DNA from: Nostoc sp. CCY 9925 | GTDB lineage: Bacteria; Cyanobacteriota; Cyanobacteriia; Cyanobacteriales; Nostocaceae | Assembly: GCF_963920935.1 (NCBI RefSeq) | Contig: NZ_CAWUDO010000034.1 | Span: 49,138-81,137, forward strand | Length of the DNA stretch: 32,000 nt | Reading direction: 5' to 3' | Shown here: in pieces, positions 10,798 through 31,300 of the stretch | Layout of the letters: the number at the start of each line of letters is the position of its first letter | How positions within the stretch are numbered: the stretch's first letter is position 1 | Made by a program: the position numbers and the translations under genes | Notes under the pieces: model-generated | Seen by the model: the letters and a program-made list of their open reading frames with translations, nothing else | What the model was told of the DNA's origin: nothing | Database searches by the model: none

Positions 10798-11679
10798 ATG
10801 AACATAACGCCAGAGAGTAAAGTCTTAATTCAAGGCTTTTGTGAATTTATATCAGGCACTCATGTTGCTCAAATGAAAGCCTATGGCACGAATTTGGTAG
10901 CTGGTGTCAATCCTGGATGCGGCGGACAGGAACTGCACGAAATACCAGTATTTGACTTAGTAGAGGAAGTAGTAGAACAATTTGGCCCAATTGACACGAC
11001 AATTATCTGTGTAGATCCTTACGATGTTTTGGATGCGGCATTAGAAGCGATCGCATCTCAGATTCGCCAAATTATTATTATCACCGCTGGAGTGCCACCT
11101 TTGGATATGGTGCAATTACTCCGCAAAGCCGAGGCCTGTGAAACCTTGGTAGTCGGGCCAAATAGTCCGGGGATCATTGTGCCAGGAAAAATTCTCTTAG
11201 GAACTCAACCAAGTGAATTTTATACACCAGGGCCAGTGGGGATTGTCAGTCGTAGCAGTACCCTTACTTACGAAGTCGCCTACGAATTAACAAAAGCTGG
11301 TTTGGGGCAGTCGATTAGTGTCAGCATCGGTAGTGATGCGATCGTTGGTTCTTCGTTTTTGCAATGGCTACAAATTCTCGACGAGGATGAGACTACAGAA
11401 GCGATCGTTTTAGTCGGTCAACCTGGTGGTGGTAGTGAAGAAGCAGCGGCGCGCTACATTGCTGAGGCCATTGATAAACCAGTAATTGCCTACATTGCAG
11501 GCAGACTTGCACCACCAGGGAAAAGTTGGCGCCAAACCGGCACTTTAGCAACAGTTATCGGACGCGACCCCAATTTTGGCACAGCCCAAAGTAAATTAGC
11601 TGCTTTCAAAGAAGTACAAGTTCCCGTAGCTGAACGCCCTTCTCAAATTCCACAATTGGTGAAAAAAGGGATTAATTAA
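10798..11679 (+). CDS. sucD: Succinyl-CoA synthetase alpha-subunit-like CoA-binding protein, with a degenerate catalytic loop
   Basis: It is collinear by eye with E. coli SucD: KVLIQGF, PVFDLV, IIIITAGVPPLDM, VGPNSPGII, VGIVSRSSTLTYE, TEAIVLVGQPGGGSEEAAA, VIAYIAG. The phosphohistidine loop GHAGA, however, reads RQTGT. Confidence 0.8.
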   Translation: MNITPESKVLIQGFCEFISGTHVAQMKAYGTNLVAGVNPGCGGQELHEIPVFDLVEEVVEQFGPIDTTIICVDPYDVLDAALEAIASQIRQIIIITAGVPPLDMVQLLRKAEACETLVVGPNSPGIIVPGKILLGTQPSEFYTPGPVGIVSRSSTLTYEVAYELTKAGLGQSISVSIGSDAIVGSSFLQWLQILDEDETTEAIVLVGQPGGGSEEAAARYIAEAIDKPVIAYIAGRLAPPGKSWRQTGTLATVIGRDPNFGTAQSKLAAFKEVQVPVAERPSQIPQLVKKGIN

Positions 11680-12028
11680 ACCAGATGCAATCTGCCAATA
11701 AAAACTCGTCGGCTACTCACAGTAATAATTGCTCATAGCTTCAATAAATTTGTACGAATAATTCCAACATTAGAATTTCGTAATTCGGTCTTTGCTAAAT
11801 ATTTATTTCCTAGGACATTGCTGAAAATATAAGTAATGGAGGAAAACCACAGACATAGCTGATTTCCGGCAAAATCAAAAAATCAAACTGCTTTTTGAGG
11901 CGAAAATCTCCTAGAGTTAGAGAAGGTATCAGCTTATCTAATATTGTCTTTAAAAAGAAAAACGCGTTGAAAGCATTAGGAATGAAGCTTAACTGTACTG
12001 TAGTATACTACATCTAAATAATAATCCT

Positions 12029-13720
12029 GTGTTTAATAGTTTAATAGTTGAAAGCAGTGTGAAAAAAATCCTGATTTTGTCAGCCAATCCGCAAAATACA
12101 GAAAAGCTACGCCTGGATGAAGAAGTACGGGAAATTCAGGCTGGTTTGGAACGTGCTAGAAGCCGAGATCGGTTTGAAATTATCACCAGATGGGCAGTCC
12201 GGACTGATGATTTACGCCGTGCGCTTTTGGATCACGAACCGGAAATTGTTCACTTTTCTGGGCATGGGGCTGGAAATCAGGGTTTGGCCTTAGAAAATAA
12301 TGTAGGGCAAATGCAACTGGTGAGTACAGCTTCACTGGCAAGGCTATTTAAGTTATTTAAAAATCAGGTTGAGTGTGTGCTATTGAATGCTTGCTATAGC
12401 GAGGTACAAGCTGAAGCCATTCATCAACACATTGATTGTGTAGTGGGCATGAATCAGGCAATTGGCGATCGGGCGGCGATTAAATTTGCCGTTGGTTTTT
12501 ATGATGCACTGGGCGCTGACAGAAGCTATGAAGATGCTTATGAGTTTGGCTGTAGTGCGATTGATTTAGAAAGTATTCCTGAGTCTGCAACTCCAATTTT
12601 GAAAAGCCGCAACAAGCCAAAAGATAGCCCAGGGATTGCACAACAGCGCCAGCCAGAACAGATTCCCCAAAACTCAATACCGACAGTAACAGTAATCTCT
12701 CTAGAAAATCCAGAAGGGCAAGTACCTCTAGATTCTGCTTTTTATGTTGAGCGTCCCCCAATTGAAACAGACTGTTACGAAACTATTCTCAAGCCAGGTG
12801 CTTTAATTCGGATCAAAGCTCCTCGGCAGATGGGCAAAACCTCCTTAATGACGCGAATTCTGAGTCACGCTCATCAAAATAATTATCAAAGTGCATCTTT
12901 AAACTTTCAATCAGCCGATGCAGAATTTCTCAATAGCTTGGATTTATTTTTACAGTGGTTTTGTGCCAGCATTACTAACGAATTGAATTTACCAGATAAA
13001 CTCAGTGATTATTGGAAAGGAGTTTTGGGTAGCAAAAATAAATGTACAAATTACTTTCAACGGTATTTATTACCTGCAATTAATAGTCCTATTGCTTTGG
13101 GTTTGGATGAAGTGGATGAAGTTTTCAAACATCCGATAATTGCTGCCGATTTTTTTGGATTGCTGCGGGCTTGGCATGAGCGCTCAAAAAATGAAGTACT
13201 TTGGAAAAATCTCAGGTTAGTAATTGCTCATTCTAAAGAAGTTTACATTCCACTTAATATTAATCAGTCACCTTTTAATGTGGGTTTACCAATTGAATTA
13301 CCAGATTTGAATCAAATACAAGTACAAGATTTAGTCAAGCGTCACAGCATAAATTGGTCTGATTCACAGGTGGAAGAGTTGAGAAAGTTGGTGAATGGTC
13401 ATCCTTATTTAGTGCGGATGGCGCTTTATGAAATTGCCCGTGGTAGGATGACGCTGCCAAAACTACAGCAAATTGCAGCCACAGAGGAAGGTCCTTACAG
13501 CGATCATTTGCGCCGCCATTGGCTGAATTTGCAAATAGATCCAGAATTACTGGATGCAATTCAACAAGTGGTGACAGCAGATTCTCCTGTGGATGTGGGA
13601 GCAGAAGCAGCATTTAAACTCCGCAGTATGGGGGTGGTAAAATTTCAGGGTAATGAAGTGATACCTTTATGTGATTTGTATAGACAGTATTTTTGCGATC
13701 GCCTGGGAATTAACAATTAA
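12029..13720 (+). CDS. Caspase/CHAT-like (His-Cys dyad) N-terminal domain fused to an AAA_35-type STAND-like P-loop NTPase
   Basis: N-terminal domain: KKILILSANPQNTEKLRLDEEVREIQ...EIVHFSGHG...CVLLNACYS. After a P/Q-rich linker comes FYVERPPIE...LIRIKAPRQMGKTSL (Walker A) and ALGLDEVDEV (Walker B). The start may instead be GTG 12059 (VKKILILS...). Confidence 0.8.
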   Translation: MFNSLIVESSVKKILILSANPQNTEKLRLDEEVREIQAGLERARSRDRFEIITRWAVRTDDLRRALLDHEPEIVHFSGHGAGNQGLALENNVGQMQLVSTASLARLFKLFKNQVECVLLNACYSEVQAEAIHQHIDCVVGMNQAIGDRAAIKFAVGFYDALGADRSYEDAYEFGCSAIDLESIPESATPILKSRNKPKDSPGIAQQRQPEQIPQNSIPTVTVISLENPEGQVPLDSAFYVERPPIETDCYETILKPGALIRIKAPRQMGKTSLMTRILSHAHQNNYQSASLNFQSADAEFLNSLDLFLQWFCASITNELNLPDKLSDYWKGVLGSKNKCTNYFQRYLLPAINSPIALGLDEVDEVFKHPIIAADFFGLLRAWHERSKNEVLWKNLRLVIAHSKEVYIPLNINQSPFNVGLPIELPDLNQIQVQDLVKRHSINWSDSQVEELRKLVNGHPYLVRMALYEIARGRMTLPKLQQIAATEEGPYSDHLRRHWLNLQIDPELLDAIQQVVTADSPVDVGAEAAFKLRSMGVVKFQGNEVIPLCDLYRQYFCDRLGINN

Positions 13721-13882
13721 GAAATTACATTAGGAGGTATGAAAGACTTTTATTTTGAACCACTATTAAAGTAAAAAGGTATAAATTCATGGTTCAAGTT
13801 ATTCTAGGCAAAAGATATCACCTTAACCGAACTCCTTGAGCAATTTAACCTACAACTTGCAGTTTAAAGCGCCTAGCTGATT

Positions 13883-13949
13883 TAATTCGTAATTCGTAAT
13901 TCGTAATTAATAAATAATGTCTTTTTCCTACTCCCCAGTCCCCAGTCCC
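13883..13949. repeat. STRR heptamer arrays (AATTCGT x3, then CCCCAGT x2.5) just upstream of the 1242-aa gene
   Basis: taattcgtaattcgtaattcgtaatt at 13883-13908. ccccagtccccagtccc at 13933-13949. CCCCAGT is the classical STRR1 unit of heterocystous cyanobacteria. Confidence 0.9.
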
Positions 13950-13961
13950 TATAAATAGCCT

Positions 13962-16900
13962 ATGACGCAGTATCAGTATCAAGTCGGGGGTAGTCTGCCT
14001 CAAGATGCGCTAACCTACGTTAGAAGGCAAGCTGACTATGATTTTTATGAAGGCTTAAAAGCTGGGGAGTTTTGTTATGTTCTCAACTCACGGCAGATGG
14101 GGAAATCTAGTTTGCGCGTGCAGGTGATGAAGCAATTGCAGGAAGAGGGTTTTGCCTGTGCTGCTATTGATATTACAGCGATCGGCACGGCAGATATTAC
14201 CCCAGAAGAGTGGTACGCGGGGGTAATTGATACGCTGGTGGGGAGTTTTAATATTTACAATGAGTTTGATTTAGATACTTGGTGGACTGAGAACGGGTTG
14301 CTGTCACCAGTGCAGCGGTTTAGCAAGTTTATTGAAACGGTTTTACTCAAAATAATTACTGCAAAGATAGTTATTTTTATTGATGAAATAGATAGTATTC
14401 TCAGCCTTTCCTTCAACTTGGATGACTTTTTTGCTGTGATTCGGGATTGCTATAACCGACGCGCTGACTATCCTGATTATCATCGTCTCACCTTTGCTTT
14501 GATTGGGGTGTCTACGCCTTCAGATTTGATTCAAGACAAACGCCGCACACCTTTTAATATTGGACGGGCAATTGATTTAACTGGCTTTCAACTCCAAGAG
14601 GCGCAACCCTTAGCCCAAGGATTAGCAGAGGTGGGCGATTCTCAAGAATTGATGCGGGTGGTGCTGGAATGGACTGGGGGACAGCCGTTTTTGACACAAA
14701 AAGTCTGTAAATTGCTGGTGCAGAGAGGACTGGAGACTAGGGATTGGGGACTAGCGACTGGGGACTGGGTAGAAGAGTTGTTACGCCAGCGGATTATTGA
14801 GAATTGGGAAGCGCAGGATGAGCCGGAGCATTTGAAGACGATTCGTGACAGAATCATGCGGAGTGGGGAACAGCGGACTGGGCGATTGTTGGGGTTGTGT
14901 CAGCAAATTTCGCAGCAGGGAGAGATAGTTGCTGATGACAGTCCCGAACAAACGGAACTGCGGCTGACGGGGTTGGTGGTGAAGCGGGAGGGAAAGCTGC
15001 GAATTTATAACCGCATTTACGCAGAGGTGTTTAAGCAGGAATGGAGTGAGAAAATCTTAGCAAAGTTGCGTCCTTACTCTGGTGCATTAAATGCTTGGGT
15101 TGAGTCGGAACGTCAAGATGAGTCGCGCTTGTTGCGGGGAAAGGCTTTGCAAGATGCTCAAGAATGGACAGTCGGTAAAAGTTTAAGCGATTTGGATTAT
15201 CAGTTTTTAGCTGCTAGCCAAGAATTAGAAAAGCGCGATGTGCAGAAACGGCTGGAGGCAGAGGAACAGGCAAGGCAGGTATTAGCAAAGGCAAACCATA
15301 AAGCTAATCAGCGGATTCAGATTGGCTCTGTGGTGCTAGGGTTGGCTGTAGTGGGGGTGATAGCTTCGTTAATATTGGCTCAATATCAATTGGGGCAGGC
15401 GCGGCAAGCACAAGCTGATGTTAACAAGGCAGAATCTGACCGCAAACAAGCAATAGCCGATCAGCAGCAAGCCCTCGAACGGGTAAAAAAGGCAGAATCT
15501 GACGGTAAACAAGCAATAGCTGATGCTAATAAGGCTAAGAAACAACAGGAGCAAGCCCTAGCACGGGCAAAAAAAACTGATGACGATGCAAAAAAAACTC
15601 GAACTGAAGCACAACAATCCGTTTTAGCAGCGCAGTCTAAGAGTAAAATCGCCCGCGAACAGCTACAAAAGGCACTCAAAGCAACAGAACTGGCAGAACG
15701 AAAAAAACAAAAAGCAGAGGCATCTCAAAAACAGGCAGAAGCAAAAACACAGATTACACGGGAAGGTGCAAAACTGGAAGGGTTATTTGTCCAAGCTTTA
15801 GCACAATTTGAGTTGGATCGGGTAAAAGCTTTGCTAGCAGCAATAAAATACGGAAATGATTTCAAAGCCTTACTAGAGAAAAATCATCTGCAAACACTCG
15901 ACTTTGAAGCTAATCCAGTGCTAGCTTTACAAATCATCTTTGAAAATATGCCGCAAGTGCTAAGGCATCAGTATCCGGTTACCAGCGCCAGTTTTAGCCC
16001 TGATGGTCAGTATATTATCACTACCTCCAGTGACAATGTTGGTCACTTATGGAAAATGGGACGGCAAATTTACAGCTTAAAAGGTCATCAAGGTATTGTC
16101 TACAATGCCAGTTTCAGCCCTGATGGAAAATACATTGTCACAACTTCATCTGATAAGACCGCTAGAGTTTGGGACTTGACAGGACAGCAAATTTCCATCC
16201 TCAAAGGGCATGAGGGCATGGTCTGGAGTGCCAATTTTAGCCCTGATGGAAAATACATTGTCACAACCTCATCTGATAAGACCGCCCGAGTTTGGGACTT
16301 GACAGGACGGCAAATTTCTATCCTCAAAGGGCATGAGGGCATGGTCTGGAGTGCCAATTTTAGCCCTGATGGAAAATACATTGTCACAGCTTCCGGTGAC
16401 AAGACTGCTCGAGTTTGGGACGAGTTGACGGGAAAGAAAATTGCTTTGTTTCGAGAGCATAAGAGCGCCGTCTATAGTGCCAGTTTTAGCCCAGACGGAA
16501 AATCTATCGTTACAGCTTCCGGTGACAAAACCGTACAGAAATGGGAATGGAAGCAATACCTGCAAGAAAAGGAAGATCCACAGACACCATCTAAGGAAAG
16601 CGAAGAAAAAAAATGGGGAATTACACTTGATGATATTGTCTGGAGCGCCAGTTTTAGCACTGATGGAGAGCGCATTATCACTGCCTCCCGCGACGGTACT
16701 GCCCGAGTGTGGGACTTGACAGGAAAGGAGATTACTACTTTGAAAGGGCATCATGGCACGGTTTGGAGTGCTAGTTTTAACCGCCATGGGCAACGCATTG
16801 TCACAGCCTCATCTGATAAGACTGCTTTGGTTTGGTTGCAGCAAGAACAGAATGCTTTAAATAACTATCTCAGTAGTGCTAATGATGAATCCAAGAAAGA

Positions 16901-17690
16901 GAACACTTTTTTAAATGACAAAATTGTCAAAGTAGAAACTTTAGAAAAACTATTAAATCAGAGTTGTGAATGGTTGCAGGGCTATTTACCATATGCAGCT
17001 GATATGAGTAATGGCGACGTGAGCGTTCGAGTTAGCCAAAGCCAAAATCGGATGCAAGAAGTTCGTCAAATCTGCGGATTTGCCTCAGAAATAGTACCTT
17101 CTCAAACATCAACTACTACAGTGAGTAAGCCTTCTAAGACCGGAATTGTAGTAGTTATTGACCCTGGACATGGCATGACCCCAGACACGGGTTCGAGAGG
17201 CATTTATGAACTGCGAGAAGAGGATGTAGTTCTACCTATTAGCAAAAAAATAGCAGAGATTTTAGAGCAAAGTGGTGTGTCGGCAGTACTAACACGGGAT
17301 GCAGAATATGTCTCGTCTAGCGTCACAGACAGCCTCTCCTATAGAGTAGAAATGGCAAATCGAGTTAGCGCAACCTTGTTTATTAGCGTTCACGCAAATG
17401 TATTCAACGGACAAGCTAATGGTATTGAAATATATGCTACTTCAGATGATAGTAAGCGTCTAGCTGAAATAGTTCTTGATAAAATTATTAAGGTTAGTGG
17501 CTTATCTAACAGGGGAGTAAAAAATACTGGTTTTTATATTTTAAAGAAAAACACTATCCCAGCTATTTCAGTACTAACAGGTTTTATCGATAATGCAAAA
17601 GATGTTGCTGTATTAACTAATCCAGATTCACAAAATAAGATGGCCGAAGCGATCGCTCGTGGTATTCTCCAGTATTTAGGAGAAAAGTAG
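13962..17690 (+). CDS. Multidomain protein: AAA_35-type STAND-like NTPase, one hydrophobic helix, K/A/Q-rich coiled coil, 7-bladed WD40 propeller, and an Amidase_3-type N-acetylmuramoyl-L-alanine amidase
   Basis: [24 protein letters not shown]...[12 protein letters not shown] (Walker A at nt 14100-14108) and [10 protein letters not shown] (Walker B). Hydrophobic helix [24 protein letters not shown] (nt ~15318-15383). Seven SPDG...(S/T)(S/A)S(D/G)(K/N)T(A)RVWD WD40 units (nt ~15960-16835). C-terminal domain VVVIDPGHG...LFISVHANV...GIEIY...[12 protein letters not shown]...[13 protein letters not shown]. Confidence 0.85.
16116..16361. repeat. Two near-identical 123-bp tandem units (41 aa each) inside the WD40 region
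   Basis: 16116-16238 and 16239-16361 both encode [23 protein letters not shown](Q/R)[18 protein letters not shown] counted only about six nucleotide differences by eye. Confidence 0.9.
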
Positions 17691-17758
17691 ATAGTTAACT
17701 CAAATGGGAATACCCATCGATGGGCTATTGTGGAGCGATGCCTGCCACAACACTAAGC

Positions 17759-18859
17759 TTAAATTTCTGGCTGCTGCGTTGATGTCCGTGTCTCCCGTTC
17801 AAGAAGAGTGCGTTTGCGTTCCACGCCCCATCGATAGCCCGACAATGCGCCGTCATGACGCACAACACGATGGCAAGGAATCGCTACTGCTAAGGGATTT
17901 GCACCGCAGGCTTGGGCAACTGCCCGAACTGATTTCGGCAAACCGATGGACTTGGCGATGTCCGTATAGCTTGCCGTCGAACCGTGCGGAATCTTCTGTA
18001 ACGCTTGCCACACGCGCTGCTGGAAGGCAGTACCGCGGATATCGAGAGGCAAGTCCAGCCCCAATGCTGGCACTTCAACAAAGCCCACAACTTTCGAGAC
18101 GAGTTCCTCGAACTCGGCATCGCCACCGATGAAATTGGCCTGTGAGAATCTGTCTTGCAAATGGCGTGTTAGTGCGTCTGGTTCGTCGCCCAGAAAAATG
18201 GCGCAGATCCCGCGATCGCTTTTGGCAACGAGGATCGATCCCAAAGAGCATTCGCCGACAGCGAAGTGTATGTCTGTATCAGCGCCACCAGCGCGATAGT
18301 TTGAAGGTGTCATACCCAATACTCGATCTGATGTTTCGTAGAACCGTCCGTTGGAATTGTATCCGGCGTTGTAAATTGCCTCCGTCACCGTACCGCTTTT
18401 CTTGAGCGTTTTCCGCACGCGGTTCTGGCGATGAGCCGCCGCGTATTCTTTCGGTGTCAGTCCAGTAATTGCCTTGAACACACGGTGGAAGTGATACTTA
18501 CTCAATCCCACATGCTTTGATAGTTGTTCCAGACTCGGCATCTCCTGAGATTTCTCAATGAGTCGGCAAGCGATCGCAATTTTTGCTAGCTGCTGTTCCT
18601 TCGCCGAGTCCCGATCCGGCTTACAACGCTTACACGGGCGGAACCCAGCTTTCTCGGCATCCTTGCAGGTTGCATGGAAGCGCACATTTTCCGGTCGCGC
18701 CAGACGCGCGGCACACGATGGACGGCAGTACACGCCGGTAGTCTTAACTGAGTAGTAGAATTTGCTATCCGCCTGAGGATCGCGAGCGACAACGGATACC
18801 CAACGGGCATCGTTCTCCGTTACCGCTGCCAGTTGGGCGTTTTTCGCTGAGATGTTCAT
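17759..18859 (-). CDS. ada: Bifunctional Ada: methylphosphotriester-DNA methyltransferase/AraC-type regulator fused to O6-methylguanine-DNA methyltransferase
   Basis: N-terminal Zn-Cys domain (YYSVKTTGVYCRPSCAARLARPENVRFHATCKDAEKAGFRPCKRCKP). AraC HTH (LEQLSKHVGLSKYHFHRVFKAITGLTPKEY). C-terminal MGMT domain with the active site IPCHRVV. Confidence 0.93.
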   Translation of the reverse strand: MNISAKNAQLAAVTENDARWVSVVARDPQADSKFYYSVKTTGVYCRPSCAARLARPENVRFHATCKDAEKAGFRPCKRCKPDRDSAKEQQLAKIAIACRLIEKSQEMPSLEQLSKHVGLSKYHFHRVFKAITGLTPKEYAAAHRQNRVRKTLKKSGTVTEAIYNAGYNSNGRFYETSDRVLGMTPSNYRAGGADTDIHFAVGECSLGSILVAKSDRGICAIFLGDEPDALTRHLQDRFSQANFIGGDAEFEELVSKVVGFVEVPALGLDLPLDIRGTAFQQRVWQALQKIPHGSTASYTDIAKSIGLPKSVRAVAQACGANPLAVAIPCHRVVRHDGALSGYRWGVERKRTLLERETRTSTQQPEI

Positions 18860-21697: not shown

Positions 21698-22990
21698 CTA
21701 ATTAATTCCTTTTAATAGATAAGTCATCATTTCTCCTTTACCTTTAACTTTAATTAAACCTCGTTCTTCCAATAGATATTTATGTTTTAGAAGCTGATAA
21801 CTTGCTTCACAAACTTGGATACTACCAGCTATGCCGTGTGATTCCATGCGACTAGCTGTATTGACTGTATCTCCCCAAAGGTCGTAGGCGAACTTTTTCA
21901 AACCAATTACTCCTGCTACTACTGGACCTGTGCTAATGCCGATGCGAATGCGAAAAGATTGGTTATTTTCTTCATTAAACTGAGCTACAGCATTTTGCAT
22001 ATCCAACGCCATGTTAGCTATGGCGATCGCATGATTATTAGATTGATTTGGCAACCCAGCAACGGCCATATATGCATCGCCAATCGTCTTGATTTTTTCC
22101 ACTCCATGACGTTCTGCTAACTGGTCAAATAAACAGAATATTGTATTTAATAAATCAACTAATTCCGCAGGAGATGTCCTAGCTGAAAGTTCTGTAAAAC
22201 CAACAATATCAGCAAATAATACAGTAACTTCCAGAAAACTATCAGCAATAGTTGTAGGCTGTTGTTTTAATTGTTCGGCAATCATCGCTGGCAAAATATT
22301 TAGTAGCAGCCTTTCTGATTTTTGCTGGGCTACCTCCATTGCTTTACGGGCGTCGAATTCATTTTTTTGTAATCGTTCATATAAATAAACAGAAAAAACA
22401 CAAATTATGCAAGTCCAAAAAAAATATATGCCGCTTTCAACATAATGAGCTAAGGGATTTTCTAGTGTCGGTTTATATAATGTATATAAAACTAGATAGC
22501 AGAAAAGTGTCCCAATTTGCGATCCTAAATGCATCCACCATTTTACTGGTATCAGTGTAGCTTGAGTTAAAAACATTAAATTCCAGAGATTGTTTGTCGG
22601 TTCAAAATCATTAAATAGCAGCGCTATATCAATTTGAACAACACAAGTTACAGACCAGCATAAGCTTAAAAAAATTAAATCTGGATGACGGCGGCCTATG
22701 GAATTTTTACATAAAGCCCAACAAATAAAAATGAATAATTCAACTATAAAACCAATCTTAAAAGCGTATATTTTGCCTTCTACCTGTGAATTTATCCAAA
22801 GGAAAAAAGCGATTAAAGTCAAACCAGCAATCAGCATAATCTGAGCCTGCAATTGTAGTCGCTTGAGCAGGAAGCGCTGTCGCTGTTCTTTGTAGGATTT
22901 GTCAAAGTTATTGCTTAATTGCCAATGGGGCATCCCTTGACTCATGAGCGCATCTAGTTGAGTTTTGTCAGAGTTATTTGGATGAATCAT
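21698..22990 (-). CDS. Membrane-anchored class III adenylate/guanylate cyclase
   Basis: The N-terminal ~220 aa are polytopic and hydrophobic. The C-terminal CHD domain reads VTVLFADIVGFTELS...KIKTIGDAYMAVAGLP...IRIGISTGPVVAGVIG...YDLWGDTVNTASRMES. Confidence 0.9.
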   Translation of the reverse strand: MIHPNNSDKTQLDALMSQGMPHWQLSNNFDKSYKEQRQRFLLKRLQLQAQIMLIAGLTLIAFFLWINSQVEGKIYAFKIGFIVELFIFICWALCKNSIGRRHPDLIFLSLCWSVTCVVQIDIALLFNDFEPTNNLWNLMFLTQATLIPVKWWMHLGSQIGTLFCYLVLYTLYKPTLENPLAHYVESGIYFFWTCIICVFSVYLYERLQKNEFDARKAMEVAQQKSERLLLNILPAMIAEQLKQQPTTIADSFLEVTVLFADIVGFTELSARTSPAELVDLLNTIFCLFDQLAERHGVEKIKTIGDAYMAVAGLPNQSNNHAIAIANMALDMQNAVAQFNEENNQSFRIRIGISTGPVVAGVIGLKKFAYDLWGDTVNTASRMESHGIAGSIQVCEASYQLLKHKYLLEERGLIKVKGKGEMMTYLLKGIN

Positions 22991-23027: not shown

Positions 23028-23120
23028 ATGGGGCATAGGGCATGGGGCATAGAGAATAGAAATAATTACCGATGCTCAATGCTCAATGCTCAATGTCCAA
23101 TGCCCAATGCCCAATGCCCA
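23028..23120. repeat. Palindromic STRR arrays (ATGGGGC/ATAGGGC facing ATGCTCA/ATGCCCA heptamers)
   Basis: atggggcatagggcatggggcat ... atgctcaatgctcaatgctcaatgtccaatgcccaatgcccaatgccca. GGGCAT is the reverse complement of ATGCCC, so the two arrays can pair. Confidence 0.85.
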
Positions 23121-23126
23121 ACAATT

Positions 23127-24698
23127 ATGGCTCGTACCCCAACATTAACTTTCGATCGCGGCACACTCATTTTGCATCCACCACCACGTGGCAAAGCTTG
23201 GATGGACTACGCCACATGGGATGATAGAGTTGAAAAATTCCGCATTCCAGCGATTAGATACCGATCGCTGGTGGAAGCACTACAAGCGGAAGATGTGAAC
23301 TTTATCGATGAAGCAAAGGAGTTTTATCCTCTAGATTTGGTTTCTAGTTTGGAAATGGAACCTTATCCTCATCAGAGTGAAGCCCTAGCAGCTTGGAAAG
23401 TAGCGGGTAGGCAGGGGGTGGTTGTGCTTCCCACGGCGGCGGGAAAGACTTATTTAGCACAAATGGCGATGCAGTCAACCCCCCGCACGACGCTGATTGT
23501 AGTGCCAACTTTGGATTTAATGCATCAGTGGTATGCACATTTAGTGGCGGCTTTCCCGGATGCTGAGGTGGGATTGCTGGGGGGTGGTTCGCGGGATAAG
23601 ACAGCGATTCTCGTGGCGACTTACGATAGTGCCGCAATTCACGCGGAAGCTATCGGAAATCAATATGCTTTGATTGTTTTTGATGAATGTCATCACTTAC
23701 CAACAGATTTTAATCGGGTGATTGCGGAATATGCGATCGCACCCTATCGCTTGGGACTTTCTGCAACACCAGAACGCACCGATGGCAAACATGCTGATTT
23801 AAATATTCTCATTGGTCAAGAAGTATATCGCAAACGCGCTGAAGATTTAGCGGGGAAGGCGTTAGCAGAACACGAAATTGTCCAAATTAAGGTCAAGTTA
23901 TCGCAAAATGAACGAGAAAGATACAACCAATTAATTCAAACTCGCAACGACTTTTTAAAGCAATCTCGTATTTCTTTGGGCAGTCTTCAAGGTTGGCAAA
24001 TGTTCGTGCAAATGAGTGCGCGATCGCAAGCTGGACGTAGAGCTATGTTAGCGCATCGCGAAGCCAAAGATATTGCTTTGGGTACTGATGGGAAGTTGCG
24101 AATTTTAGCTAATTTATTGGCAGAACATTATCCGGCAAGAATTTTAATTTTTACTGCTGATAATTCTACGGTTTATCGCATTTCTCAAGAGTTACTAATT
24201 CCGGCAATTACCCATCAAACGCCTGTGAAGGAACGCCATGAAATATTAACAAAGTTTCGTGAGGGTACGTATAACACTTTGGTTGCTTCTCATGTGTTGA
24301 ATGAAGGTGTTGATGTGCCGGCGGCTTCTGTGGCAATTATTTTATCGGGAACGGGTTCGGCTAGAGAGTATACTCAGCGCTTGGGGAGGATTTTACGGAA
24401 GGGAAATATTGAGAATAAACAGGCGATTTTGTATGAGGTGGTGGCGGAGGATACGAGTGAAGAGGGGACTTCGGCGAGGCGGAGAGGGGAGAGTGGGGGA
24501 CAAGGGGAGAAGAAGGGGAATTTGCAGGTTGTGTATGGGAGTGGGAAGGGAAGGAGTTTGAAGGCGGCGGAACAGTTAGAAATTAATTATTCAACTGGAA
24601 GTTCAAAATCTAAAATCAAAAATTCAGATGTTACCGACAGATTTACTGATGCATCGCCAAAACGGGGAAGAGATCATCCCGAAGAGACTGAAGATTGA
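23127..24698 (+). CDS. XPB/Ssl2-like superfamily-2 DNA helicase (DEAD/DEAH box, ResIII-type)
   Basis: The start MARTPTLTFDRGTLIL resembles an XPB-type N-terminal domain. Helicase motif I is LPTAAGKT, motif II is FDECHH, motif III is LSATPER and motif VI is YTQRLGRILR. The C-terminal tail is low-complexity and G/E/R/S-rich. I chose the start at ATG 23127, because upstream codons are read from the heptamer array. Confidence 0.85.
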   Translation: MARTPTLTFDRGTLILHPPPRGKAWMDYATWDDRVEKFRIPAIRYRSLVEALQAEDVNFIDEAKEFYPLDLVSSLEMEPYPHQSEALAAWKVAGRQGVVVLPTAAGKTYLAQMAMQSTPRTTLIVVPTLDLMHQWYAHLVAAFPDAEVGLLGGGSRDKTAILVATYDSAAIHAEAIGNQYALIVFDECHHLPTDFNRVIAEYAIAPYRLGLSATPERTDGKHADLNILIGQEVYRKRAEDLAGKALAEHEIVQIKVKLSQNERERYNQLIQTRNDFLKQSRISLGSLQGWQMFVQMSARSQAGRRAMLAHREAKDIALGTDGKLRILANLLAEHYPARILIFTADNSTVYRISQELLIPAITHQTPVKERHEILTKFREGTYNTLVASHVLNEGVDVPAASVAIILSGTGSAREYTQRLGRILRKGNIENKQAILYEVVAEDTSEEGTSARRRGESGGQGEKKGNLQVVYGSGKGRSLKAAEQLEINYSTGSSKSKIKNSDVTDRFTDASPKRGRDHPEETED

Positions 24699-25842
24699 TC
24701 GGCAAACTTCGGAGTTGGCGATTGAGTTAATTAATTATTTTCAATCAGCAGTGGGGAAAACTCAGGGTATGCTTGAGCGACAACTGACTGATTTTGAAGG
24801 AGATTCGACAGATTATCGAGTGAAGCGGGGATTAGCTTATATTCTCAAAAGCAGTTTTTGTACTTTTGAGGTGGTTAGTCCTTTAGAACCACAAATGTTA
24901 AGAGAACGGGTGTTTTCTCTGGCTGCAAAGTCTGTTTCTAGTCGGGAATCCACACAAGTTACTTTGACGAAAGTTGCTGATGAGTTAACTCAAGAACTTG
25001 AACGGGAAGTGTTACCAGAACAGGTTCGCAATGGATTATATGCTGATTTATCTGAGAATAAAATTTTGACGGTTTTTGATGCACCAACAGCGCCAGATTT
25101 GTTAAATCGCTATAACTTATCTCAGGTGCAGGGTGTGTTTTATAAAGCAAGTCAGTTGGTGTTAAATGCTCATCGGAATGTTCCGGGAGAATATAAGCTG
25201 TTATTTCGTTATTTAAAGTTGTTTCAATTGATGGCTTATATTGAAGGTGATGCTGACCACGGATTTACAATTACAATAGATGGTCCGACGAGTTTGTTTA
25301 ATCCTAGTACGCGATATGGCTTGGCGATCGCTAAACTCATTCCCGCTTTACTTCACGTTACAAAATGGAGTCTTTCTTCAATTCTCCAAACCCGTGACGT
25401 TTATACAAATACTTGGAAAACTGGACGTTTTACTCTGAATTCCGAATGTGGTTTAGTATCTCATTATCCACCAGGAAAGCCTTACGATAGTATGCTAGAA
25501 GCATCCTTCGCTGATAAATGGGATGCCTTGAAAAGTGGTTGGGCTTTAGAGAGAGAAGTTGATTTGATACCAATTCCTGGTAGTGTGATGATTCCTGATT
25601 TTCGCTTAGTGCATCCTGATGGACGCACTTTCTTATTAGAAATTGTTGGTTATTGGCGTCCAGAATATTTACAAAAGAAGTTTTCTCAGGTGCGGCGTGC
25701 TGGACGAGATGATTTGATTTTGGCTATTTCCGAACGACTTAATTTAGAAAAGGCGGGAGTAAAATTAAATGATGTCCCCGCCAGAATTGTTTGGTTTAAA
25801 GATAAATTATTGCCAAAAGCTGTCTTAGCTGTGATGGATTGA
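24628..25842 (+). CDS. DUF790/Bax1-family nuclease (partner of XPB-like helicases)
   Basis: It starts MLPTDLLMHRQNGEEIIPKRL and continues DYRVKRGLAYIL. The C-terminal nuclease-like core reads MIPDFRLVHPDGRTFLLEIVGYWRPEYL. The gene overlaps the helicase 3' end by 71 nt. Confidence 0.8.
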   Translation: MLPTDLLMHRQNGEEIIPKRLKIDRQTSELAIELINYFQSAVGKTQGMLERQLTDFEGDSTDYRVKRGLAYILKSSFCTFEVVSPLEPQMLRERVFSLAAKSVSSRESTQVTLTKVADELTQELEREVLPEQVRNGLYADLSENKILTVFDAPTAPDLLNRYNLSQVQGVFYKASQLVLNAHRNVPGEYKLLFRYLKLFQLMAYIEGDADHGFTITIDGPTSLFNPSTRYGLAIAKLIPALLHVTKWSLSSILQTRDVYTNTWKTGRFTLNSECGLVSHYPPGKPYDSMLEASFADKWDALKSGWALEREVDLIPIPGSVMIPDFRLVHPDGRTFLLEIVGYWRPEYLQKKFSQVRRAGRDDLILAISERLNLEKAGVKLNDVPARIVWFKDKLLPKAVLAVMD

Positions 25843-27360: not shown

Positions 27361-27880
27361 CAGTTTTTGTGTTGGCTTTGTGATTCTCTTTTGTAGGCAA
27401 GTGAATAAAACCCCATTCCATTGTAAGAAATAGGCTTGAAGATAAGCGTTTGTAAGATTGCAAAATGTGACTTTTACTTCAAATCATCCGCGTCTATCTC
27501 CTTTGATTCCAGCAATTTTTGCATAGGCGTAGCACATCGGATACATCGCTCACTTAAAATGTATTAAACTCAAGTTTGTAACTCGGCGATATTCCGTCTG
27601 TTGCATCACCCGCTATAGGTTAGAAACCTATGGCTAATAGCTAAAGTCTTCTCAAGAAGACTGAGAGTGGATTTGTGCTAAGCTAATGAGCATTTAAGTT
27701 GCATAAAACCAGGGCTGGAGCCGCTTCCTACAAGCAAATCACTCTGGAAAAATGAATGACGATTAGCTTATCGGCCTTGCAATTGATTGCAAGGTGGGAT
27801 ATGGGGTTAATTACTAAATGTGTGTACTTTCCGAAATAGACACAATTGCATTTGTATCTTCAAGTGCAATGAACTATTTC

Positions 27881-28348
27881 ATGATTATGGAACCTGTAAC
27901 ACTAACGGCAGCTGCAATCACAACTTTAATTTTCTCAGAAGCTTTGAAAGAAGGTGGGAAAGCTTTAGGAAAAAGTGTTTCAGAAAAAGTTGCTCAACTA
28001 TTGAGTGCTATTCGTGAAAAGTTTCAAACTGTGCAAACTGAAGGGCTACTGACACGAGCGCAAGAAAATCCAACAGATAAGAATACCTCAAAGTTCCAAG
28101 ATGAATTGGAAACGCAAATGGAGGAAGATAAAGTCTTTGCTAACCGCTTGGAAGAATTAATGACGCAGCTTAAATCGAATGAAACGATTAATCAAATTGT
28201 TCTCAAGGGAGTTAGGGTAACGGGTAAGGCTAAAGTCGGCAATATAGATTTAGTAGCTACAAGAGACGGTTCTGTGAATCAAGAAGCGCTAGTTGATTCT
28301 CAATTTAGCGACGATCTTGACGTTGGTAATGTGAACATCAAAGCCTAA
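27881..28348 (+). CDS. Small helical protein of unknown function, translationally coupled to the NB-ARC/TPR gene
   Basis: The ORF is open from 27818. Likely starts are ATG 27881 or 27887 (M-I-MEPVTLTAAAITTLIFSEALKEGGKALGK). A charged helical middle is followed by a G/V/N-rich C-terminal segment. The stop at 28346-28348 lies 4 nt before the next ATG. Confidence 0.6.
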   Translation: MIMEPVTLTAAAITTLIFSEALKEGGKALGKSVSEKVAQLLSAIREKFQTVQTEGLLTRAQENPTDKNTSKFQDELETQMEEDKVFANRLEELMTQLKSNETINQIVLKGVRVTGKAKVGNIDLVATRDGSVNQEALVDSQFSDDLDVGNVNIKA

Positions 28349-28352
28349 AATC

Positions 28353-31300
28353 ATGAACGATCGCCCTAACTTTGAGAAAATACAGCAGAGTGCGTTTAAC
28401 AATGTTCAAGCCCACGATATCACAGTTGGCAGCATTACCCAAATTGTAAACCAGGGTAAAACTCCGAAAGCAAAAGGTATTCCGCAAAATTTACCCATGA
28501 GTGGAGTGGTGAAGTTTGTTGGACGTGAAGCTGAGCTGCAAAACCTCCACCAGATGTTACAGGAAAATAATCAGGTGGCGATTGCAGCGATCGCTGGCAT
28601 GGGTGGTGTTGGTAAAACAGAACTGGCCTTACAATATGCAATAGCTCACCGTGAAAACTACAAAGGTGGAATTTGCTGGTTGCTGGCAAAGACTGGAGAT
28701 GTCGGCATTCAAGTTGTGCAGTTTGCGAGAACGCAACTTGACTTAAACCCACCAGAAGATTTAACAGAAGATCCTCAAAATAAATTACTCGCCCAAGTAG
28801 AATATTGCTTTCGCCATTGGCGTGAGGGTGATGTGCTGCTAGTGTTGGATGATGTCGCGGTATATAAGGAAGTCAAGCCTTATTTACCATCGTCATCTCC
28901 ACGGTTTAAAGTGCTGATGACTACGCGATTACGTTTAGGAGCATCCATTAAGCAATTATCTCTGGATGTATTGCAACCAGAAGCAGCCCTAGAGTTATTC
29001 CAGTCACTCATTGGCGCAGAACGGTTACAAAAAGAGCTTGATGTTGCTAAGTCTCTGTGTAAATGGCTGGGATATTTGCCTTTAGGGTTGGAATTAGTAG
29101 GGCGGTATCTATGTCAAGAAGGGCAACAAGACCTCTCCTTAGTAAAAATGTTGCAACGCTTGGAGAAAAAGCGACTAGAACAAACCGCCCTTGTTGAGCC
29201 AGAAGACGATATGACAGCACATCTGGGCGTGCAAGCAGCTTTTGAGTTGAGTTGGCAGGAATTAAAAGACACAGATAAGCAAATGGGTTGTTTGCTAAGT
29301 TTATTTGCCGCCGCGCCTATACCTTGGAATTTAGTAGAACAATGTTTACCAGAGGAAGACGAGGAAGATTTAGAGGAAATCAGAAATAATAAACTCCTGA
29401 AACTGCATTTGCTCCAGCGTCAAGGTGAGGAAACCTACCAATTGCATCCCCTACTGCGGGAGTTTTTCCAATATAAGCTTACAGATTTAGAACAGGCAGA
29501 GGAATTAAAGCGTTCCGTTTGCAAGGTAATGGTAGGAATTGCCGAAAATATTCCTTATACTCCCACCCTTGAGCAAATCAACGCTGTTTCCCCAGCTATA
29601 CCTCATATAGCTGAAGTAGCGAATCATCTCATTCAATACATCAGCGATGATGATTTAATTTGGCCATTTATCGGTAACGCTTGGTTTTACAATGGTCAGG
29701 CATTGTATGAAAAAGTAGCACCTTGGTTAGAGGAGTGTCTAGAAGTCACTAAACAGCGCTTAGGAGAAGAACATCCAGATGTTGCCGCTACCCTCAACAA
29801 CCTGGCACAACTCTACTACTCCCAAGGAAAATACAGCGAAGCTAAACCCCTGTACCTGCAAGCTTTAGAACTATGGCGACGCTTGCTGGGAGAGGAACAT
29901 CCATCTGTTGCCACTACCCTCAACAACTTGGGACAACTCTACTACTCCCAAGGAAAATACAGCGAAGCTGAAACCCTGTACTTACAAGCTTTGGAACTAT
30001 GGCGACGCCTGCTGGGAGAGGAAGATCCATTTGTTGCCACTACCCTCAACAACTTGGGACAACTCTACTACTCCCAAGGAAAATACAGCGAAGCTGAAAC
30101 CCTGTACTTACAAGCTTTGGAACTATGGCGACGCCTGCTGGGAGAGGAAGATCCATTTGTTGCCACTACCCTCAACAACTTGGGACAACTCTACTACTCC
30201 CAAGGAAGATACAGCGAAGCCGAATCCCTGTATTTGCAAGCTTTGGAACTAACGCGACGCCTGTTGGGAGAAGAACATCCTAATGTTGCACTTAACCTCA
30301 ATAATCTAGCAGCACTCTACTACTCCCAAGGTAGATACAGCGAACCTGAAACCCTAAACCTGCAAGCTTTGAAAATATGGCGACGCCTGCTAGGTGAGGA
30401 ACATCCTAATGTTGCACTTAATCTCAACAACCTGGCTTTACTCTACTACTCCCAAGGAAGATACAGCGAAGCCGAACCTCTGTACCTGCAAGCTTTGGAA
30501 ATATGGCGACGCCTGCTGGGAGAGGAACATCCTAATGTTGCACTTAATCTTAACAACCTGGCTTTACTCTATTACTCCCAAGAAAGATACACCGAAGCCG
30601 AACCTCTGTATCTGCAAGCTTTAGAACTATGGCGACGCTTGCTGGGAGAGGAACACCCTAATGTTGCACTTAATCTTAGCAACCTGGCTTTACTCTACTA
30701 CTCCCAAGAAAGATACAGCGAAGCTGAACGCCTGAACCTGCAAGCTTTGGAACTAAGACGACGCCTGCTGAGTGAGGAACACCCTGATGTTGCACAAAGC
30801 CTCAACAACTTAGCGGGACTTTACGAATCTCAAAAAAGATACAGCGAAGCTGAACACATGAATCTGCAAGCTTTGGCACTCACACGCAAGTTGCTGGGAG
30901 AGGAACACCCTAATGTCGCCACTAGCCTCAACAACCTAGCGGGACTCTACGAATCGCAAAAAAGATACAGTGAAGCTGAACCCTTGTACATTCAAGCTTT
31001 AGCACTCACACGCAAGCTGCTGGGAGAGGAACACCCAGATGTCGCCACTAGCTTCAAGAACCTAGGATTACTCTACTACTTCCAAGACAGATACAGCGAA
31101 GCTGAACCCCTTTTAATCGAAGCTTTGGCACTCAGGCGCAAGTTGCTGGGAGAGGAACACCCAGATGTCGCCACTAGCCTCAACAACTTAGCGTACGTCT
31201 ACGAATTCCAAGACAGATACAGCGAAGCTGAACCTCTGTACATTCAAGCTTTAGCAATCAGACGCAAGTTGCTGGGAGAGGAACACCCAGATGTCGCCAC

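Follow-up and report, generated by a model that had tools for sequence, protein, structure and literature searches.

We analyzed a 32,000-nucleotide stretch of the genome of Nostoc sp. CCY 9925 (contig NZ_CAWUDO010000034.1, positions 49,138 to 81,137; hereafter the window), in which two adjacent genes encode paralogous nucleoside triphosphatases (NTPases) of the Pfam family AAA_35 (PF14516). Gene 1 (chain A) carries a CHAT cysteine protease head in front of its NTPase module, AAA_35-A, and gene 2 (chain B) joins its own module, AAA_35-B, to a transmembrane (TM) helix, a coiled coil, a WD40 propeller and an amidase-like domain. Judged from the related sequences, the conserved unit is the AAA_35 pair and not the combination of CHAT with an amidase. 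We give about an even chance to the reading that the locus is a bipartite, trans-envelope receptor/protease module that resembles the nucleotide-binding leucine-rich repeat (NLR) receptors. As far as we found, the paired AAA_35 family is undescribed in the literature searched and in PADLOC.

The pair was recognized in a scan of one genome per species, which gave 80 loci, all cyanobacterial. At these loci, an A-type AAA_35 gene (the type of gene 1) is followed on the same strand by a B-type AAA_35 gene (the type of gene 2) in 63 of 83 cases, and the paired genomes belong to Nostocales, Oscillatoriales, Pseudanabaena and Leptolyngbya-like cyanobacteria. The spacers range from -8 bp upward, with overlapping stop and start codons in 13 pairs. 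Moreover, the A and B modules diverge together (Mantel r 0.83 across 51 pairs, a value reached by 0 of 2000 permutations). Since the two paralogous NTPase genes are co-conserved and co-diverging, their co-assembly is a reasonable proposal, and AAA_35-A and AAA_35-B would be expected to contact each other physically. Three representatives carry both modules in a single chain, which lends the pairing weak Rosetta-stone support, because metagenomic read-through is possible in such sequences. An earlier reading of this DNA, made from the sequence alone (the sequence-only reading), had already proposed two paralogous STAND-like NTPases that could co-assemble, in a combination without known precedent. 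That part of it stands; for this locus, the lytic role that it gave the amidase, and the action of the protease on the amidase, do not.

In our model, chain B would be a bitopic inner-membrane receptor, with AAA_35-B inside the cell and the stalk, WD40 propeller and amidase-like domain in the periplasm. A periplasmic or cell-wall cue would act on the WD40 and amidase-like ectodomain, and the signal would travel through the stalk and the TM helix to AAA_35-B. AAA_35-B and AAA_35-A would form an NTP-dependent hetero-oligomer, in which the CHAT heads, brought together, would become active, as in the apoptosome or the SAVED-CHAT filament. Active CHAT would cut cytoplasmic targets and lead to arrest, death or signalling. 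The sequences directly show the domain composition, the intact motifs, the adjacency and co-divergence of the pair, the exchange of heads and tails, the loss of the catalytic Glu in the amidase and the remnant of a deleted gene, and they support the TM topology indirectly. The physical assembly of A with B, the direction of signalling, the activation of CHAT by proximity and the biological role are the parts of this model that we infer.

The features of the locus are as follows.

12059..13720, + strand: gene 1, chain A (output), with CHAT cysteine protease head and AAA_35-A NTPase; from the open reading frame (ORF), Pfam, orthologue starts and AlphaFold2/Foldseek
12074..12529, + strand: CHAT (caspase-fold) domain; from Pfam, PADLOC, the 8TL0 profile match, Foldseek and the invariant His/Cys
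12263-12265 and 12392-12394, + strand: codons of the CHAT catalytic His and Cys; from alignment
12710..13696, + strand: AAA_35-A NTPase module; from Pfam, motif invariance and an ORC/STAND-like fold
12836-12838 and 13106-13108, + strand: Walker A Lys and Walker B Asp of AAA_35-A, which also has SPFNVG and GHPYL (GxP); from alignment
13789..13899, + strand: deletion remnant of an HSDR_N / PD-(D/E)xK nuclease-like ORF (~206-208 amino acids, aa); from tblastn/blastn, DNA alignment and Pfam
13962..17690, + strand: gene 2, chain B (putative receptor), 1242 aa and 100% identical to a known protein of Nostoc sp. CCY 9925, with AAA_35-B, TM helix, coiled coil, WD40 and amidase-like domain; from the ORF and Pfam
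13962..15314, + strand: AAA_35-B NTPase module and helical extension, predicted cytoplasmic; from Pfam, motifs and paralogy to module A
14103-14105 and 14382-14384, + strand: Walker A Lys48 and Walker B Asp141 of AAA_35-B, which also has TPFNIG and GGQPFL; from alignment
15315..15386, + strand: single TM helix (aa 452-475) with basic N-terminal flank, predicted N-in/C-out; from hydropathy, charge bias and the partition of tails
15393..15881, + strand: Lys/Ala/Gln-rich coiled-coil stalk (~160 aa), predicted periplasmic; from sequence and the AlphaFold2 model of the tail
15954..16886, + strand: seven-bladed WD40 propeller with one inserted loop; from Pfam and AlphaFold2
17151..17669, + strand: AmiC2-type Amidase_3 domain, predicted to be a non-hydrolytic peptidoglycan-binding module; from Pfam, the 5EMI alignment and substitution rates

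The protease chain and the paired NTPase family

The longest ORF of gene 1 starts at GTG 12029 and ends at 13720 on the + strand (563 aa), which is the extent given by the sequence-only reading. The true start is probably GTG 12059 (553 aa), because the orthologues begin with MKKILIL and the gene of a syntenic relative encodes 553 aa. Gene 2 lies 241 bp downstream on the same strand; apart from this start codon, the coordinates, strand, spacing and motifs reported in that reading were all recovered by ORF calling, Pfam and alignment. Promoter and terminator scans of 11600-18000 stayed at background level and gave nothing firm on co-transcription, and the same scan found no terminator-like site between the two genes.

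Our data confirm that the head of gene 1 is a CHAT / caspase-fold (clan CD) cysteine protease, which had first been suspected from a His-Cys dyad. The Pfam match to CHAT covers aa 16-167 and scores 44.9 bits (E 1.3e-11), where the cutoff is 24, and the PADLOC 'chat' model matches with E 7e-22. All 16 aligned orthologues keep the catalytic residues His79 and Cys122 (numbered on the 563-aa ORF), which follow each other in the order and at the spacing that are canonical for the caspase fold. A profile of the gene 1 orthologues has one match among solved structures, the CHAT domain of SAVED-CHAT (8TL0, E 7e-18), in an alignment that pairs the catalytic motifs HF.GHG and LNAC of the two proteins. 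The AlphaFold2 model of gene 1 (pLDDT 72) likewise finds 8TL0 as its best Foldseek match (E 7e-12), followed by caspases 4, 8, 9 and 11 (~1e-4). An NCBIfam search returned no family for gene 1, and the Pfam scan showed no recognisable sensor domain in chain A. Orthologues of gene 1 are 66-90% identical across many genera of Nostocales. The ratio of nonsynonymous to synonymous substitution (dN/dS) is ~0.1 for both CHAT and AAA_35-A against more distant relatives, and there are zero amino-acid differences over the CHAT head, linker and AAA_35-A between the window and the syntenic locus L084 of Nostoc ChiQUE01a.

The P-loop modules of the two genes both belong to AAA_35 (gene 1, aa 228-556, E 4.5e-145; gene 2, aa 10-261, E 1.2e-25) and are paralogues with 26% identity over 249 aa (E 1e-16), in agreement with the sequence-only reading. 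They have in common Walker A, Walker B, [ST]PFN[IV]G and a STAND-like GxP motif. In AAA_35-A, the Walker A residues G269 and K270 and the Walker B residues D360 and E361 are invariant in the 16 orthologues; all four motifs are strongly conserved among 120 homologues of gene 2. Foldseek matched the AAA_35 fold to the archaeal Walker-type ATPases 2QEN and 2FNA, to ORC2, to the plant NLR RPP1 and to Avs4, with E-values from 4e-7 to 1e-4 and low template-modelling scores. This fold and the motifs justify the label STAND-like (signal transduction ATPases with numerous domains) that the modules had been given, in the sense of an ORC/NLR/Avs-like fold with GxP. The label does not extend to a recognized STAND family in Pfam, in which no clade exceeded the threshold and NPHP3_N (14.3 bits), AAA_22 and AAA_14 stayed below cutoff. 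Nor do we find the single-chain tripartite STAND layout of effector, nucleotide-binding oligomerization domain (NOD) and repeats: the head and one NOD lie on chain A, and the other NOD and the repeats on chain B.

The window fits the family as we define it, an A-type module with an N-terminal head adjoining a co-oriented B-type module with a C-terminal tail, and in this family both ends vary. Heads were counted in 41 loci and tails in 47. The chain A heads in the 41 loci are:

Ser/Thr kinase: 23
CHAT: 10
TIR: 7
Caspase C14: 1
nucleotide cyclase: 1
helix-turn-helix (HTH): 1

One further locus has a Trypsin-TIR head with a Trypco1 gene in front. Kinase-headed A modules are 58-73% identical to that of the window, and the CHAT-headed ones of Pseudanabaena are ~40% identical to it; head type thus does not track the phylogeny of the NTPase, from which we conclude that heads are swapped. 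The tail of chain B is WD40 in 31-32 of the 47 loci, and tails seen elsewhere in the family are TPR, GUN4, PG_binding_1, ARC6-like IMS, Reg_prop, CHAT, trypsin, GAF/PAS, HATPase_c and cyclase.

The family is large and often carried on plasmids. An exhaustive search for the B-type module retrieved 4,542 cluster representatives (50% identity) at E <= 1e-30. The A-type module occurs in 67 plasmid records, and the phage genomes searched contained no homologue of gene 1 or of the A-type module. A 39-kb plasmid of Tolypothrix carries CHAT-AAA_35 with AAA_35-GUN4; the neighbouring protein that NCBI names 'peptidoglycan-binding protein' has no Pfam match and was not used as evidence. Outside Cyanobacteria, a pair is present on plasmid NZ_CP128402.1 (L087, 1744-8380) of Ca. 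Chlorohelix allophototropha, a filamentous phototrophic member of the Chloroflexota, where AAA_35-WD40 and Pkinase-AAA_35-LuxR HTH are encoded in reversed gene order. Some genomes or contigs hold several paralogous pairs.

This range of partners bears on what the module is for. The same machine could serve a housekeeping or developmental purpose, in which it would monitor wall or septal peptidoglycan in filaments (growth, septal nanopores, hormogonia, fragmentation) and CHAT would be a regulatory protease. Such a role agrees with the 66-90% identity and low dN/dS of gene 1 across Nostocales genera, with the kinase, HTH, cyclase, GAF/PAS and HATPase_c partners, which resemble ordinary signal transduction, with flanking genes of metabolism and DNA repair, and with the nearest relative of the amidase-like domain, the septal nanopore enzyme AmiC2. 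The CHAT head is also comparable to HetF of Anabaena, a protease of the caspase fold that reportedly acts on a specific regulatory substrate. Nevertheless, we consider this role unlikely, if a serious contender. The TIR, caspase and trypsin-Trypco1 heads, like the nuclease-like third gene, are features typical of conflict systems. Pairs are multiplied within genomes and contigs, plasmid carriage is frequent, the locus varies between close strains, and transposases, Prim-Pol or toxin-antitoxin genes adjoin some copies; the sensor region is mosaic, and its WD40 blades are repeated at the DNA level.

Predicted membrane topology and the amidase-like domain of chain B

The layout that the sequence-only reading gave to gene 2 (hydrophobic helix, coiled coil, seven WD40 blades, Amidase_3) was reproduced by Pfam and by an AlphaFold2 model of the tail. 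Pfam detects WD40 in seven stretches (9e-68). The tail model (pLDDT 81) shows a helical stalk of ~200 residues (helices 2-96, 100-176 and 180-200 of the model), 28 strands that make up the seven blades and, after a helical linker, an amidase domain that is well folded. NCBIfam gave only sub-threshold amidase and TolB matches for gene 2.

The tail of gene 2 is most likely periplasmic, with both NTPases and the CHAT domain of gene 1 in the cytoplasm. This placement draws on the conservation of the TM helix, on the positive-inside rule and on the split between envelope-type and cytoplasmic-type tails. In a hydropathy scan, a TM helix was present at the equivalent position in 86 of 120 homologues, including 12 of 13 amidase-tailed forms. 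The helix of gene 2 is preceded by a basic 'NQRIQIGS' motif, and across the homologues the N-terminal flank is more positive than the C-terminal one in 74 cases versus 4 (Wilcoxon p 6e-11 on Lys + Arg counts, for sequences that are related and not independent). Among cluster representatives, envelope-type tails occur only after a TM helix: PG_binding_1 five times, ARC6-like IMS, Reg_prop and, where the TM helix is borderline, a PBP-like tail. Tails of the GAF/PAS, HATPase_c and cyclase types, on the other hand, are confined to members that lack the helix (0/20 vs 5/10, Fisher p 0.002). The amidase tail itself is not significantly associated with a TM helix (12/13 vs 74/107, p 0.11), so that it is the charge bias and, as the strongest support, the partition of tails that carry the case for this topology.

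The same architecture could be read from the inside out, with a cytoplasmic cue acting at the NTPase pair or the CHAT chain and the periplasmic tail of chain B as the output, which in relatives would act on the wall through active amidase, CHAT or trypsin tails and in the window would serve as no more than a tether to peptidoglycan. Chain A has no recognisable sensor domain, CHAT (at least six cases) and trypsin (two) occur as tails past the TM helix, and over half of the fused amidases keep their catalytic Glu, all of which would fit. Yet it is established that the C-terminal WD40 or TPR repeats of STAND and NLR proteins are normally sensors and the N-terminal heads effectors (cf. PMC7159879); here the effector head on chain A is intact, the tail in the window is catalytically disabled, and the GAF/PAS tails of the TM-less members are classic input domains. 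Signalling outward thus seems quite unlikely to us.

The amidase-like domain of our outside-in model deserves particular scrutiny. Pfam places Amidase_3 at aa 1064-1236 of gene 2 (8e-44), and the best match in the PDB is 5EMI, the catalytic domain of AmiC2, which is the septal nanopore amidase of N. punctiforme (E 6e-42). In Amidase_3 enzymes, the Zn ligands are two His and a Glu, and the catalytic residue is another Glu, on strand beta-6 (Glu145 in AmiP; PMC9929850). The metal ligands that the sequence-only reading counted on are present: H1070, E1086 and H1144 are kept and align with those of 5EMI and 1JWQ. At the position of the catalytic Glu, however, gene 2 encodes Leu1205 (codon CTA, 17574-17576; 'SVLTGF' vs 'LVETGY'), as do its two closest fused relatives. 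Among 13 amidase-tailed homologues, this position is Glu in 7, Leu in 3 (the clade of the window) and Tyr, Gln and Lys in 1 each, a pattern that implies no fewer than four independent losses. The Glu is present in each of the 63 stand-alone relatives whose sequence extends over this position, versus 7 of 13 fused domains (Fisher p 8e-6). A search with the amidase domain only returned ordinary, mostly partial cyanobacterial amidases, which served as the control set and revealed no donor lineage.

Constraint on the amidase domain is relaxed, not absent, as far as substitution rates tell: dN/dS is 0.33-0.57, compared with 0.13-0.19 for AAA_35-B and 0.18-0.28 for WD40. Other family members carry non-catalytic PG_binding_1 repeats at the position of the amidase. 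Given the loss of Glu, the relaxed constraint and the PG_binding_1 parallels, a captured peptidoglycan-binding module is a more economical account than a lytic effector, and the domain most likely binds or anchors to peptidoglycan here, with its fold and Zn ligands kept.

An amidase tail is also rare, with 0 of 80 species-representative loci and 3 of 150 cluster representatives having one, so the pairing of CHAT with an amidase, which had been taken as the defining combination, is not what defines the family. Six amidase-tailed cassettes were examined together with their neighbours, and each of them has a protease as its partner head: CHAT in five (the window, Nostoc ChiQUE01a, Nostoc C110, a Nostoc metagenome-assembled genome and Fischerella JS2) and Trypsin-TIR in one (N. 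punctiforme UO1). In this last genome (L083, 1-15326), the amidase-tailed cassette is accompanied by a Trypco1 gene and the Trypsin-TIR-AAA_35 partner, and the flanks hold fragments of Tn3/IS630 transposases as well as a Prim-Pol/DUF3987 gene, an indication that the cassette lies in a mobile island.

The sequence-only reading had regarded the two chains as co-assembled death effectors, with CHAT cleaving or activating a tethered amidase to cause lysis in abortive infection or necridium formation. All the domains for this are present, six of the six amidase-tailed cassettes examined are protease-headed, 7 of 13 fused amidases retain every catalytic residue, and the domain, like AmiC2, is without the autoinhibitory helix insert. 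Against this, Leu replaces the catalytic Glu both here and in the two nearest relatives, and the predicted topology separates the protease from the amidase by the inner membrane. The vast majority of family members have no amidase, and PG_binding_1 repeats, which are non-catalytic, stand at the same position elsewhere. Lysis by the amidase is thus highly improbable, and its release or activation by the protease conflicts with the predicted topology.

The lost middle gene, mosaicism and surroundings of the pair

Between the two genes lies the remnant of a third. It comprises an ATG at 13789, ~25 codons with a 1-bp insertion, a ~517-bp deletion, and the last ~10 codons with a stop at 13899. The intact ORF scores 32 bits with Pfam HSDR_N (cutoff 25.1) and is present in L084, where synteny with the window extends to the SucC/SucD-like genes upstream and to Ada downstream, and also in L081 and L085. 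Because L084 retains the gene, we regard the deletion as recent. A nuclease-like middle gene also accompanies CHAT-headed Pseudanabaena pairs (L069, L077), while many pairs of the family consist of two genes with no middle gene. Heptamer-type tandem repeats (TAATTCG x3; CCCCAGT x2-3) at 13886-13905 and 13932-13950, and also at ~11779, flank the remnant and precede the start of gene 2; TAATTCG is likewise placed in relatives. These repeats look like the short tandemly repeated repetitive (STRR) type of cyanobacteria.

The deletion raises the question of whether the cassette in this strain is a decaying remnant without current function. The ~517-bp deletion and frameshift of the HSDR_N gene, absent from L084, point that way, as do the lost catalytic Glu and raised dN/dS of the amidase domain. 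However, both large ORFs are intact with all NTPase and protease motifs preserved, and gene 1 combines identity to L084 over CHAT, linker and AAA_35-A with a dN/dS of ~0.1 against distant relatives. Leu at the catalytic position is common to three diverged lineages and is therefore old and tolerated, and pairs without a middle gene are widespread in the family. We hold decay of the whole cassette to be highly improbable.

Gene 2 is itself mosaic. In a comparison with L081 and L084, the NTPase end and the amidase end come out nearest to ChiQUE01a (synonymous divergence, dS, of 0.13 and 0.065), whereas the TM-coil-WD40 middle is nearest to Nostoc C110 (dS ~0.2 vs ~0.6 to ChiQUE01a). Three of the WD40 blades form a 123-bp x 3 tandem array at the DNA level (16059-16421; Tandem Repeats Finder, 88% matches). 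Together, the mosaic structure and the array suggest that the sensor region undergoes recombinational turnover.

Several neighbours in the window are recorded for completeness.

17759-18859, - strand: Ada-type methyltransferase/AraC regulator, directly downstream and also so placed in the syntenic relative, with no apparent link to the cassette
21698-22990, - strand: membrane adenylate cyclase, with no apparent link to the cassette
23028-24698, + strand: XPB-type helicase (XPB_DRD, ResIII, Helicase_C)
24628-25842, + strand: DUF790 ORF (E 9e-157), overlapping the helicase gene
27818-28348: small ORF directly upstream of the next gene
28353-32000, + strand: single-chain STAND protein (NB-ARC and ~17 TPR), running past the end of the window

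The ORFs at 23028-25842 form an apparent XPB/Bax1-like helicase-nuclease pair, where GC skew is as strongly positive as in gene 2. The NB-ARC-TPR gene lies ~10.7 kb downstream of the AAA_35 pair, and the neighbourhood thus holds a second, unrelated NLR-like gene.

Significance and comparison with known systems

Several observations weigh against a trans-envelope receptor that controls a protease. The topology is drawn from hydropathy, charge bias and domain co-occurrence, and tails of the WD40, TPR and GUN4 types are seen in members with a TM helix as well as in members that lack one, which is odd for supposedly cytoplasmic domains. B-type chains P0315, P0326, P0344, P0388, P0397 and P0443 carry tail proteases past the TM helix; a full CHAT (sometimes TPR-CHAT) follows the TM helix and coiled coil in at least six chains and trypsin in two. 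Tails can therefore be effectors, and CHAT-tailed B chains would, if the C-out topology is true, be extracytoplasmic caspase-fold proteases. The sequence data are compatible with either direction of signalling, and the contact between chains A and B is a proposal. The catalytic Glu is kept by 7 of 13 fused amidases, and the amidase, which is under less constraint than any other folded domain here, may be in decay instead of having taken on a new role. Kinase heads are the commonest in the sample, so the family may serve general signalling and not immunity or cell death. With its middle gene lost, the system of this strain may no longer work, and the SucCD-like and Ada neighbours do not make a defence island.

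If the model is true, the paired AAA_35 genes would constitute a very large family of two-chain NLR-like switches (at least 4,500 clusters at 50% identity, in Cyanobacteria, some Chloroflexota and on many plasmids), in which sensor and executor are separate paralogous NTPases, a design of animal and plant immunity for which we found no bacterial description. Through the TM-bearing branch, NLR-type sensing would reach beyond the cytoplasm into the periplasm and to the cell wall, and an AmiC2-type housekeeping wall hydrolase would have been captured, repeatedly inactivated and reused as a binding module. The same chassis with swapped heads (CHAT, kinase, TIR, trypsin) and tails (WD40, PG_binding_1, GAF/PAS) would offer natural experiments by which filamentous cyanobacteria could be tested directly for regulated cell death and wall surveillance. 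More tentatively, and with considerable doubt, we hypothesize that paired AAA_35 proteins are a major unrecognised class of bipartite NLR-like receptors of filamentous or multicellular bacteria, whose TM branch senses outside the cytoplasm. A periplasmic WD40 propeller docked on peptidoglycan by a dead amidase or by PG_binding_1 would detect wall damage, phage entry or the lysis of a neighbour and, by hetero-oligomerisation with the paralogous executor NTPase, switch on a caspase-like protease in the cytoplasm, as a trans-envelope counterpart of NAIP-NLRC4.

In NAIP-NLRC4 and in paired plant NLRs, paralogous NOD NTPases divide the work, one bearing the sensing repeats and the other an effector or adaptor head. 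The AAA_35 pair resembles them in that the presumed sensor and executor are paralogous NTPases that are encoded together and co-evolve. The analogy is functional, without a sequence-family relationship; both P-loops are intact here, and the hetero-oligomers are our proposal.

For chain B, a topological parallel is found in the PASTA Ser/Thr kinases (PknB/StkP), wall-state sensors in which a cytoplasmic enzyme is joined by one TM helix to extracytoplasmic peptidoglycan-binding domains. Chain B is predicted to have the same topology, and many A chains of the family carry Ser/Thr kinase heads. The PASTA kinases differ in having neither an NTPase switch nor a second chain, and in the fold that binds the wall. 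With AmiC2 of N. punctiforme (5EMI) and other Amidase_3 enzymes, the tail of gene 2 has in common the His/Glu/His Zn ligands and, as in AmiC2, a missing autoinhibitory helix insert, around which the alignment to E. coli AmiC (4BIN) is split. Unlike AmiC2, it has Leu1205 in place of the catalytic Glu, has no AMIN targeting domains and is fused behind the NTPase, TM helix and WD40.

Among solved structures, the head of gene 1 is most closely related to SAVED-CHAT of type III CRISPR-Cas, which is activated by regulated oligomerisation, the 8TL0 entry being titled 'activated SAVED-CHAT filament'. Its regulator is the cyclic-oligoadenylate-binding SAVED domain and not an NTPase, and it has no partner chain or membrane component. 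PADLOC-DB v2.0.0 links gene 1 only to 'chat' and, weakly, to 'SAVED_CHAT', matches neither AAA_35 module, and matches gene 2 only to HEAT-ARM_XIII, through the WD40-like stretch. No model of a system-specific core component matched, and we rejected assignment to a known PADLOC system.

The literature gave a similar picture, in line with the absence of precedent stated in the sequence-only reading. A search for AAA_35 found no paper that names PF14516 among roughly 8 million searchable ones ('aaa35' gave only noise). Neither Kaur 2020 and 2021, nor a paper on diversity-generating retroelements (DGR) and STAND proteins, nor the main text of a 2026 STAND survey describes a paired AAA_35 system, and the text of Kaur 2020 and 2021 has no 'AAA-like', CHAT domain or amidase. 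The conflict systems of Kaur, Burroughs, Iyer and Aravind (2020/2021) are nevertheless organised alike: the NTPase core stays constant, the peptidase, TIR or cyclase heads vary, and repeats act as sensors. These systems (including iSTAND) often contain inactive captured enzyme domains, some have TM segments with peptidoglycan-binding tails, and their Trypco1 domain neighbours one of the amidase-tailed cassettes. Their cores, however, are MoxR-vWA, DO-GTPase-GAP1 or EACC1-caspase. No MoxR or vWA gene was found in the window or in the related loci inspected, and with SucC/SucD-like and Ada flanks, membership of the ternary or iSTAND systems was rejected.

A similar design is that of the Apaf-1 apoptosome and of bacterial Apaf-1-like caspase-STAND-WD40 proteins (PMC7159879; 2026 STAND survey), which likewise unite an ORC/STAND-like NTPase, C-terminal WD40 repeats and a caspase-fold output, and whose NTP-dependent oligomerisation is a natural model for activation. 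Here, by contrast, the NTPase is AAA_35 and not NB-ARC or NACHT, effector and sensor lie on separate paralogous-NTPase chains, and a TM helix and a coiled coil precede the WD40 propeller, for which a periplasmic location is predicted. Taken together, what appears to set the present family apart from these systems is its AAA_35 core, the split of effector and sensor between two paralogous NTPase chains, and a sensor that is predicted to be periplasmic in most members.

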